DNA from: Eledone cirrhosa
Taxonomy: Eukaryota
Direction of reading: 5' to 3'
DNA: 64,000 nucleotides
Assembly (NCBI GenBank): GCA_964016885.1
Contig: OZ024753.1
Span: 37,386,001 to 37,450,000, forward strand
Of the stretch, positions 5,811-35,697 are shown in pieces. A program made the translations under genes and the position numbers. The notes beneath the pieces were generated by a model that made no database searches, was not told the DNA's origin, and was given only the letters and a program-made list of their open reading frames with translations. Positions within the stretch are counted from its first letter, which is position 1. Each line of letters opens with the position of its first letter.

Positions 5811-5952
5811 TATTTCAGTAAATTCTATGGAAGCTTCGTTGGCAAGAGTAATGGATATTCATTCTTTCGTAACGAGGTGAGTGGTTTAATATCGAGCTGG
5901 AATCATTTTATTTTATTATTTTAAGATGCAAATAATATAATATATACGTATT

Positions 5953-16585: not shown

Positions 16586-16657
16586 ACAATATATAACAGT
16601 TTTACAAATAGGTTTGACGTACCCTTTAAAATACAACCATTACTTTTGGAGGTTTGA

Positions 16658-16715
16658 ATACCTGATGATGTCACCGGATTCATACTGAACCCGGTCATTG
16701 AAATGTTCATAGTAT
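16658..16715 (+). ncRNA. Type I hammerhead-like ribozyme (family G)
   Basis: atac-CTGATGA-tgtcaccggattca(tac)tgaacccggtcatt-GAAA-tgttc-ATA-gtat, lying in a repeat at 16650-16912. Confidence 0.65.
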
Positions 16716-16912
16716 AATAAACCTTTCAAGGATTTACACTAGTCCAGCCTACTGTTATTTTATAATCATTAACTCCGTACTCGCACCACCAACTACACAA
16801 ACGAAGACGGGTGAGTTGCATTACGTTGAGTGCTCTCCCTAATATTACATCGAGGTTGACCATACAAAATGACCTGTTCTATCCAGTGGTGAACCAACAA
16901 ACCTAAATAAAT

Positions 16913-16958
<46 letters not shown>

Positions 16959-18062: not shown

Positions 18063-18065
<3 letters not shown>

Positions 18066-18280
18066 TAGAAAGCGAGGTTTTTTTTTACAAAATGAAAAAT
18101 AACCGAGATGTCCTACACGAGTAAAAGTATAAAGAAAAAAAGATGAAATCGAAAATGCAACTGGAGTCTTATTTTTAAAAAAATATATATATTTATTTGG
18201 TTCCTTTACCGGTTTCGCAGTTCTTCTGCTTTTCAAAAGTAGAGTTGAGATGGAGGGTCTGTGGTTTTTCTCACATCTCA
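18063..18280 (-). mobile_element. Family D mini-element with U3-A8 HHR at 18203-18240
   Basis: Inverted copy of 24312-24527, between (TA)n tracts. Confidence 0.8.
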
Positions 18281-18329: not shown

Positions 18330-18678
18330 TTGAAGGCGGCCAACCGGGCTGGAAACTGCTTCTCGTCTCTCTGCCTTTTCAGCCCCATGGATTGTGTCTA
18401 TTATATTCCTTTGTTAAATTTCGAATACCTGATGATGTCACCGGATTCATACTGAACCCGGTCATTGAAATGTTCATAGTATAATAAACCTTTAAGGAAT
18501 TACACCACTCCAGCCTCCTGTTATTTTATAATAATAAACTCCGTACTCGCACCACCAACTACACAAACGAAGATGGGTGAGTTGCATTACGTCGAGTGCT
18601 CTCCCTAATATTACATCACGGTTGGCTATACGGAATGACCAGTTCTATTCAGTGGTGAACCAACAAAGCTAAATGAAT
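18330..18678 (+). mobile_element. Family G element with HHR at 18425-18482
   Basis: Direct repeat of 16650-16912 with an identical HHR sequence; ends at (TA)n. Confidence 0.8.
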
Positions 18679-18702
18679 ATATATATATAGGTCTATATAT
18701 AT

Positions 18703-18958
18703 AGGTCGGGCCCTACTGCGCATGCGCGAAGGTTGGATCCCACTGCGCATGCGTGAAGGTTCGACAGCACTGCGCATGCGCTAAGGTTGGACCGTAGTGC
18801 GCATGCGCGACGGTTGGACCATACTGCGCATGCACGAAGGTTCGATCCCACTGCGCATGCATGAAGGTTGGACAGCACTGCGCATTTGATAAGGTTGGAC
18901 TGTACTGCGCATGCGCGAAGGTCGGACCGTACAGCGCATGCGCGTAGGTTGAACCCCA
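18703..18958. repeat. 27-bp GC-rich minisatellite, 9 units, with TGCGCATGCG core
   Basis: actgcgcatgcg (or a close variant) recurs at 18715, 18742, 18769 ... 18931. Confidence 0.95.
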
Positions 18959-24248: not shown

Positions 24249-24311
<63 letters not shown>

Positions 24312-24316
<5 letters not shown>

Positions 24317-24519
24317 TGAGAAAAACCACAGACCCTCCATCTCAACTCACCTTTTGAAAAGCAGAAGAACTGCGAAACCGGTAAAGGAACCAAATAAATA
24401 TATATATTTTTAAAAAAAAATAAGACTTCAGTTGCATTTTCGATTTCATCTCTTTTTCTTTATACTTTCACTCGTGTAGGACACCTCGGTTATTTTTCAT
24501 TTTGTAAAAAAAACCTCAC

Positions 24520-24527
<8 letters not shown>
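24312..24527 (+). mobile_element. Family D mini-element between (TA)n tracts
   Basis: Inverted copy at 18063-18280. Confidence 0.8.
24350..24387 (+). ncRNA. Minimal type I hammerhead with U3-A8 core variant (family D)
   Basis: cctt-TTGAAAA-gcag(aagaa)ctgc-GAAA-ccg-GTA-aagg. Confidence 0.72.
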
Positions 24528-33506: not shown

Positions 33507-33737
33507 GTATGTTTTGCGTGGGTATTATGAATACTGGTATGTATATGATGGTTTAATTAAGAGTTGGCCTTTCGTTGACACCCCGGGCAGGGGTCATTAT
33601 CACTGAGGGTCCTAACACAAACAAAAGACATAATTAAACGAGCTAACGAGATAATGTCACACAAGCATCTGTAGGAAGAGGAAAATTACATGTTTGTATT
33701 TATCTACTCCCGTTCACAATTAATCAACGTCGAGAAA

Positions 33738-33794
33738 TGGGCCTGTATAAATTCCACTACCTCCTCTATTTCTATACCAACCTATGTATACCTT

Positions 33795-33828
<34 letters not shown>

Positions 33829-33857
33829 GGTATACATAGGCTGGTAGAGAAATAGAG

Positions 33858-33893
<36 letters not shown>

Positions 33894-33950
33894 AAGGTAT
33901 ACATAGGTTGGTAAAGAAATAGAGGAGGTAGTGGAATTTATACAGGCCCA
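33738..33950. repeat. About 60-bp inverted repeat with internal (TA)n tracts and a partial third copy
   Basis: tgggcctgtataaattccactacc...ccttcca vs tggaagg...atttatacaggccca; partial copy at 33825-33860. Confidence 0.9.
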
Positions 33951-34379
33951 TATATATATATATATATATACAAATATAGATACATACATACATACACACA
34001 CGTACATATACGTAAGTATATACTTATATACGTACGTACGTATGTACGTATGTAAGTACGTAAGTACATATTACGTACGTATGTAAGTACGTAAGTACAT
34101 ATTTACATATATACATACATACACGCACACAATCATAGATACATGGAAGCAAAGATACATACATTCACACATACAAACACCGATATATATACACACACAC
34201 ACACACACGTATATATATATATATATACATATAGACAGCCAGATACACACATCTACACACACACACACACACACACTTGTACACAGATGCAAATACATAT
34301 ATGTGTATGTGTGTGTGTGACAGCTCCTACCTCTGCAGGTTTAGCTGGCCTCCTCCAAGGAATATCTAGGGTAATTTAA

Positions 34380-34548: not shown

Positions 34549-34651
34549 AATACATATGATATACATATGATAATTAATAAATACATATGATTAATTCAGT
34601 ATTATTCTAACAAGATAAGATAGAGAATTATGAAACAATTATGTCTGCTGT

Positions 34652-35097
34652 GACCATGAGGTAATATATACCATGTGGCAATATATACCATGTGGTAACA
34701 TATACTATGTGGTAACATATACCATGTGGTAACATATACCATGTGGTAACATAGCCCATGTGGTAACATATACCATGAGGTAACATGTACCATGTGGTAA
34801 CATATGCCATGTGGTAACATGTACCATGTGGTAACATGTACCATGAGGTAACATATACCATGTGGTAACATGTACCATGAGGTAACATATACTATGTGGT
34901 AACATATACCATGAGGTAACATGTACCATGTGGTAACACATACCATGTGGTAACATGTACCATGAGGTAACATGTACCATGTGTTAACATATACCATGTG
35001 GTAACATATACCATGAGGTAACATGTACCATGTGGTAACATATACCATGTGGTAACATATACCATGTGGTAACATATACCATGTGGTAACATATACC
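34652..35097. repeat. 17-bp minisatellite (ACCATGTGGTAACATAT)n, about 26 units
   Basis: Direct reading. Confidence 0.95.
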
Positions 35098-35697
35098 TGA
35101 GATTTTGCACTTCAGTGAGACAAAAGAAGCGAATGAAAGTACATGACAACTTTCTGTTGGTTGATTCGTACTGTTACCTTTTGTCACACAGACTCCCATC
35201 TTTCTGTCTTCCTATTGTCATCAATCCATACGGATTGATGACAATAGGAAACATCTCGCATATCAGTAATTTATCCTTCTTTTTTTCATAAAGAATTAAT
35301 CGTGTGAACTGATCGACCAATTAAAATGGAGCTTAATATACAAAATATAAGAATGAGATTCTATAAGGATTATATCTTCATAGTTTTATTGGACTTCAAA
35401 AGGAACATTTTTACGCCATTTAAATGGAAAACGGAAAAGGGCGAAAACAATACAAGTGTTTGTTGGTGCTGCGTTTGAACGAGAGGAAGAGGAACATTTC
35501 ATGGTTGTTAGGAAAGAAATAGACACTGAAGATATTTGAGAAGATTGATATATTCTCGTACTCCGTGATAAATTGGTGTAAAAGGAGACGAAATATTGTT
35601 TTCGAGAGCGCCATCTCATTGAGATAACAAAATAATATAAACAAAATATGAAAATAAAATAAAAATGTAATAAAAGATAAAAGTAAATATATTCACC

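Follow-up and report, generated by a model that had tools for sequence, protein, structure and literature searches.

The window, a 64,000-nucleotide stretch of the Eledone cirrhosa genome (contig OZ024753.1), carries two copies of a small hammerhead motif on opposite strands, each within a fragment of a dispersed repeat whose long terminal unit we refer to as a pseudo-LTR (pLTR). The features are as follows.

18064..18279, minus strand: 3'-end fragment of another pLTR, between (TA)n runs and 91% identical to the pLTRs of L079, a longer copy of the element.
18203..18240, minus strand: second hammerhead copy, with a U3-A8 core and a 3-bp stem I ('AC' subfamily), from the sequence parse.
24309..24322, plus strand: usual start of copies and predicted RNA start of an internal pLTR promoter, from the 5' ends of copies.
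24313..24527, plus strand: 5'-truncated pLTR 3' end, flanked by (TA)n and 96-97% identical to both L079 pLTRs.
24350..24387, plus strand: minimal type I hammerhead motif with a U3-A8 core and a 4-bp stem I ('CC' subfamily, the younger one), from the sequence parse and a structure descriptor.
24377..24382, plus strand: palindromic stem III ACCGGU, predicted to be the intermolecular helix of a double hammerhead (cofold pair probability 0.92).
24381..24479, plus strand: predicted 99-nt intron, with a donor-like G/GUAAAG, a pyrimidine tract and a UAG acceptor.

Parsing confirmed a hammerhead at both places. In the plus copy, stem I is formed by CCUU (24350-53) and AAGG (24384-87), the core reads UUGAAAA with U3 at 24354 and A8 at 24359, and stem II is GCAG/CUGC with a 5-nt loop, followed by GAAA. 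The cleavage triplet GUA occupies 24381-83, with the predicted cut between 24383 and 24384. The minus copy differs only in the outermost base of stem I, an A, which leaves three pairs rather than four. Both copies show what is expected of a minimal type I hammerhead: positions 3 and 8 that can form a Watson-Crick pair, GAAA, an NUH site (GUA), a G10.1-C11.1 pair closing stem II, a short stem I (3-4 bp) and a palindromic stem III. An extra nucleotide between A9 and G10.1, a feature of the published consensus (PMC4209133), is absent from both, as it is from the relatives L169 and L156. Since members described in the same source, from M. japonicus and S. kowalevskii(2), also lack it while having longer palindromes, we regard this nucleotide as usual rather than defining. 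An initial annotation of the window had listed the UUGAAAA core, GCAG/CUGC, GAAA, ACCGGU and GUA in both copies and proposed a minimal hammerhead with a compensatory U3-A8 pair. The parse bears this out and places the motif in type I. The annotation's interpretation as a whole is partly supported; it was silent on the shorter stem I of the minus copy, the Penelope context, the published occurrence of U3-A8 and a possible U3-A17 trap.

A short motif in an AT-rich repeat could resemble a hammerhead by chance. The structure descriptor, which permits any base at positions 3, 7 and 8, matched the window exactly twice, at the two known copies, compared to 5 matches across 100 block shuffles with at most 1 in any shuffle (0.05 expected per shuffled window). 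The lack of a hammerhead score in Rfam speaks for a look-alike: a search of 24300-24420 gave three matches at E<=10, with no hammerhead among them, and the 150 matches listed out of 501 for the whole window were all microsatellite driven. A match to MALAT1 in the shorter search (E 0.87) was taken as chance. Monomer folding likewise gave no signal against shuffles (z -0.94), as expected of a motif that has no stable stem III. The motif sits, however, in a pLTR, where L169 and L156 have canonical hammerheads of the same geometry. With this and the excess over shuffled windows, we consider chance resemblance very unlikely and give it next to no weight.

The window holds other repeats as well. A short tandem repeat with a TGCGCATGCG-containing unit lies beside the minus copy (16653-16937 and 18420-18958), and a 17-base minisatellite of about 26 registers is found at 34551-35196. 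At 33737-33951, a long fold-back with a TA core has the appearance of an inserted inverted repeat; Rfam scored it, below threshold, as a plant microRNA.

Judged by its sequence surroundings, the motif is a hammerhead in the pLTR of a Neptune-like Penelope-like element (PLE). The 215-base repeats holding the two motifs are 93% identical to each other. Each window copy is a truncated pLTR end; the two belong to different subfamilies and went in separately, one on either strand, and the minus-strand fragment (18064..18279) is likely an independent insertion. An exact 28-base pattern running from stem II to stem I matched the 3.0-Gb source genome 11,498 times, with 0 matches for the control; this count is a lower bound on exact copies of the 3' part of the motif. 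Many of these matches form close inverted pairs. In longer copies, the sequence upstream is first CA-rich and then reaches the end of a GIY-YIG frame. A tag from the CA-rich region had 1,116 matches in the genome, and among the first 30 of these loci, a same-strand motif lay downstream in 24 and a GIY-YIG end upstream in 12. Two of 10 longer stretches examined, L079 and L084, have the layout motif-ORF-motif, with a hammerhead in both pLTRs. The motifs lie on the minus strand at 5924 and 945 in L079, 4,979 bases apart, and at 2115 and 6827 in L084, 4,712 bases apart. Their ORFs for reverse transcriptase (RT) and GIY-YIG are both frameshifted, and none of the 10 stretches showed an intact single ORF.

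In Pfam, the element protein has a GIY-YIG match and an RVT_1 match just below the cut-off (28.7 versus 29.6 bits). Its translation contains a C-x4-C-x2-C linker and, inside GIY-YIG, two cysteines as C-x2-C. An RT, a CX2-5CxxC linker and, at the C-terminus, a GIY-YIG with internal CCHH cysteines are the marks of Neptune and Nematis elements (PMC8557442). The linker and the GIY-YIG cysteines are thus present here, together with pLTRs, inverted 5'-truncated copies and (TA)n targets; we call the element Neptune-like, although these marks would fit Nematis as well. We found 808 homologues of the protein at E<=1e-20, of which the named ones are about 50% identical and belong to bivalves or to bins of bivalve symbionts. 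No relative was found when metagenomes were scanned with a single protein, nor in an alignment scan of viral contigs.

Two other assignments were considered and rejected. The UGA of the core is not the stop codon of the element's ORF: in 40 loci, a frame ending there is never longer than 76 codons, and the stop of the real ORF lies more than 1 kb upstream. Nor is the repeat a non-LTR retrozyme, which consists of tandem head-to-tail hammerhead units with no ORF (10.64898/2026.07.22.740005); the copies here are dispersed or inverted and continue upstream into the RT-endonuclease frame.

Several observations on related sequences were made along the way. Contig C1 of the source genome (about 348.86-348.95 Mb; L037-L040, L045) has units repeated in tandem about every 9.6 kb, each of which holds a degenerate copy of the hammerhead repeat and an ORF piece that may resemble interleukin-17. 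Animal PLEs also occur on short contigs filed in bacterial metagenome-assembled genomes (L155-L159, L163, L164; P0018, P0052, P0062), namely those of SUP05, Campylobacteraceae, Thiodiazotropha and a Solemya symbiont, and are likely host contamination. A 12-kb contig filed as Poribacteria (CBDHDL010000009.1; L160-L162) has three PLE-like RT-endonuclease matches about 3.1 kb apart, and the descriptor found no hammerhead in it.

Within the family, U3-A8 is fixed. A pattern with C3 and either purine at position 8 gave 61 genome matches, all of them C3-A8 and none C3-G8. U3 and A8 were present in all 24 downstream-tag-anchored copies that span the motif. Contigs of three DNA-like sequencing runs, placed on L079, showed no core variant at >=5%; the only variants at that level in the motif were two bases, those by which the stem I subfamilies differ, with the 'AC' subfamily making up about half of the depth. 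When the genome was searched for hammerheads with a canonical core and the same stem III, 6 matches came up, none of them a convincing hammerhead of the U3-A8 family. U3-A8 is thus the state of the master element, passed to all copies. The initial annotation had taken the double change in both window copies as a sign of selection for activity. This does not hold: the two copies are 93% identical members of one U3-A8 family of more than 11,000 copies, so the shared swap reflects common ancestry and is no evidence of selection. The check proposed with it, covariation of positions 3 and 8 over the family copies, found none, with a U3-A8 consensus, and evidence of selection therefore comes from other families only.

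Such evidence was found across families. Five other hammerhead families, by our own grouping of 9 motif rows, turned up with the same free descriptor in 604 kb of source-genome loci, and all are C3-G8. We then considered related elements of other organisms, at 90 loci totalling 368 kb. Their 17 sense-strand matches comprised 10 C-G (two from one duplicated contig), 5 U-A (from 4 loci, one weak), 1 A-U and 1 weak C-U, as against 3 antisense matches and 3 matches in 5 shuffled passes. In an RT tree of 29 rows, chosen as the motif-bearing loci plus the closest relatives, two sister pairs, both at 100/100, combine different states: L222 (U-A) with L224 (C-G), and L179 (U-A) with L185 (A-U). The element's own clade contains L169 and L156, both C-G, and L159, which is U-A, with the branching open. 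A hammerhead outside the ORF was found in just 3 of the contigs of the 19 closest relatives, many of which end soon after the ORF. Since the swap between paired states (C-G, U-A, A-U) recurs between families, these comparisons support selection on the 3-8 pair in Penelope-like elements generally. Apart from this, the A3-U8 core in the related PLE at L185:1969 (plus strand) is a state that we did not find in the alignment available from PMC4209133. The source genome also holds a second PLE family, recognized by a GIY-YIG end (L024:30-624 and 820; L018, L008). Its hammerhead is canonical (C3-G8), its stem III palindrome is imperfect, and its copies adjoin those of the U3-A8 family.

We examined folding of the motif as a dimer. 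Two plus motifs form a double hammerhead at -18.9 kcal/mol, compared to +0.7 for the monomeric hammerhead fold and -6.4 each for the best monomer fold, and the ACCGGU palindromes pair between molecules with a probability of 0.92. The proposal in the initial annotation that the motif acts as a dimer through stem III is thus plausible and favored by the calculations. The two window copies themselves, on opposite strands and 6.1 kb apart, cannot pair within one RNA. The 'AC' subfamily of the minus copy gives a dimer of -15.5 kcal/mol, and its 3-bp stem I is absent from the cofold minimum. For the plus motif, the cofold minimum, at -20.3 kcal/mol, is the active double hammerhead with additional U3-A17 pairs (probability 0.46), which extend stem I across the cut site. 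A C3-G17 pair has been proposed as the cause of the strong impairment of minimal hammerheads with G17 (PMC3884650). By analogy, U3-A17 may mimic this inhibitory trap, which argues against strong activity. None of the 4 U3-A8 relatives found has A17; they have U or C instead. In Schistosoma, position 17 is U in Sm(4) and, in a machine-read figure, G in Sm(3) (PMC4209133). From these models, the motif likely cuts RNA slowly and in pairs, if at all.

The ends of genomic copies offer a record of the RNAs from which they were made. The 5' ends form a cluster lying 60-76 bases upstream of the cut, seen in 18 of 30 copies anchored on the motif and in 13 of 30 anchored on the tag, two samples that overlap and include both ends of inverted pairs. 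Loose ends of the sequencing-run contigs fall at the same place. Penelope has an internal pLTR promoter (PMC2377424), and by analogy we infer that the cluster marks the RNA start of such a promoter. Among the 30 tag-anchored copies, a single one begins at the cut site. Over the whole genome we counted 102 apparent 5' ends at the cut site, 70 at -1, 32 at +1 (an undercount, as the filter drops T-preceded junctions) and 52 at -7, mostly fold-backs at the palindrome. The cut site thus exceeds its neighbors 1.5 to 3 times, a mild excess with no sharp peak, amounting to about 1% of copies, and manual reading found internal deletions or duplications in 5 of 30 inspected cut-site loci. A TA-anchored listing has another 5'-end cluster at -11 to -16, within stem II, with about 47 distinct junctions hand-counted among the first 100 of 619 rows. 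Since ends also cluster in stem II, stalling at structure explains as much as cleavage does. On the evidence of these ends, most genomic copies are made from uncut RNA. At the other side, the 3' ends in the tag sample lie at +143 in 17 of 30 copies and at +82 in 12 of 30. Many family copies end at this internal TTTATA at +82, 60 bases before the usual 3' end, which could be a second priming or end site.

These results raise the question of whether the same element carries a catalytically dead or nearly dead relic. U3-A8 would then have arisen in a working ancestor, with U3-A17 now acting as a trap and the element spreading with no cleavage. The presence of U3-A17 in the cofold minimum, the analogous effect proposed for C3-G17 (PMC3884650), the absence of A17 from all 4 U3-A8 relatives and the lack of a sharp 5'-end peak at the cut site are what a relic would lead us to expect. 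Spread of this kind has precedents, as Poseidon PAc inserts in vitro with no cleavage (PMC11167929) and Naiads proliferate with no canonical hammerheads (PMC8557442). Against a relic, all core nucleotides, G10.1-C11.1, stem II, palindrome and stem I remain whole in both subfamilies, and the longer stem I is that of the younger subfamily. An A-U pair also makes a weaker trap than a G-C pair. The 102 cut-site ends against 70, 32 and 52 at neighboring positions also speak against it. We consider a relic unlikely, though a reading to be taken seriously.

The motif overlaps a possible splice site. The donor-like G/GUAAAG covers part of stem III and the GUA triplet, and a strong acceptor follows 99 bases on, before the ATG. 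The sequence might therefore be kept for another job in the pLTR, as a promoter element, splice donor or protein-binding hairpin, with the hammerhead secondary and cutting after GUA merely competing with splicing. Penelope, indeed, has an intron inside its pLTR promoter (PMC2377424). A pattern search for spliced genomic copies gave 1 match, a microhomology deletion, and hence none; given that PLEs retain introns (PMC8557442), this absence is uninformative. L169 and L156, the nearest relatives that bear a hammerhead, lack the donor, and another job leaves the paired 3/8 states across families unexplained. We see only a slim chance for it. More speculatively, U3-A8 and A17 together could make a self-braked hammerhead that cuts three bases inside the 5' splice site, so that cleavage and splicing exclude each other. 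This is doubtful; if true, a retroelement of more than 11,000 copies would hold a switch, gated by dimer formation, that sets whether its RNA is translatable or cut.

Taken together, the motif is best explained, with a probability of roughly 0.7, as a slow, conditional self-cleaving ribozyme in the pLTR of a Neptune-like PLE that would fold only as a palindrome-paired dimer. Transcription would begin in the 5' pLTR, about 72 nt upstream of the cut site, and proceed through the ORF to the 3' pLTR, and a single RNA would thus bear two hammerheads 4.7-5.0 kb apart. The two hammerheads of one RNA, or those of two RNAs, may then pair via ACCGGU into a double hammerhead, probably aided by the element's own protein, as in Poseidon of Anolis. 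Little cleavage would be expected, given that U3 is able to pair with A17 and that the complete motif is retained in the majority of genomic copies. Both copies in the window are dead stumps, whose swap came from the master element. The family is a natural test case: U3-A8 is fixed and occurs with A17, stem I has two subfamilies, and the ends of thousands of copies keep a record of the RNA templates; it bears on the role of hammerheads in Penelope-like elements.

Minimal hammerheads with a palindromic stem III, dimer action and low in vitro activity are known from PLE pLTRs (PMC4209133), and the dimer model has been reviewed (PMC6765202). Natural covariation from C3-G8 to U3-A8 has been described in a paper stating that in vitro activity of such swaps had been proven before (Perreault et al. 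2011, PMC3088659); those variants share the swap, and the available text neither describes them as PLE minimal dimers nor takes up context dependence for a minimal motif with A17. U3-A8 was reported in Schistosoma Cercyon elements, with about 1,300 hits (Cervera and de la Pena 2014, PMC4209133). The constructs assayed there are of family Sm1 and D. virilis, and we found no assay of a U3-A8 PLE motif in the available text of that source. A search of the openly accessible literature gave no paper on the Eledone U3-A8 family.

Cercyon of Schistosoma mansoni resembles the Eledone element in its minimal type I hammerhead in both pLTRs, palindromic stem III and U3-A8, and in its many solo copies and close inverted pairs. 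Cercyon Sm(4) even has the same UUGAAAA core (Fig. S3), while S. japonicum has CUGAAGA (PMC4209133). Unlike Cercyon, the Eledone motif has a 4-bp stem II, no extra base after A9, a 6-nt palindrome and A17 (U in Sm(4)), and its element has a Neptune-type linker and a copy number about 10 times higher. With the endonuclease-bearing Neptune and Nematis elements (Craig et al. 2021, PMC8557442) it shares an RT, a CX2-5CxxC linker, a C-terminal GIY-YIG with two cysteines, partial-tandem pLTRs, inverted 5'-truncated copies, (TA)n targets and a pLTR hammerhead. It differs from those described in its U3-A8 core and unusually long pLTR: the hammerhead lies 1.1-1.4 kb after the stop codon, compared to 150-180 nt in L156, L159 and L169. 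Poseidon PAc of Anolis carolinensis (Frangieh et al. 2024, PMC11167929) also has a hammerhead near the pLTR-ORF junction, AT-rich targets and, apparently, uncut RNA as its main template. Its hammerhead cuts only with the element's protein, and cleavage is dispensable for insertion in vitro. Poseidon PAc, however, has C3-G8, a cut site inside the ORF and protein-assisted cleavage that was assayed, whereas the Eledone hammerhead, predicted from sequence, has its place some 170 nt upstream of the ATG. The motif class, the dimer model and the U3-A8 swap have thus already been published, so this finding confirms the existing picture of these elements rather than changing it.
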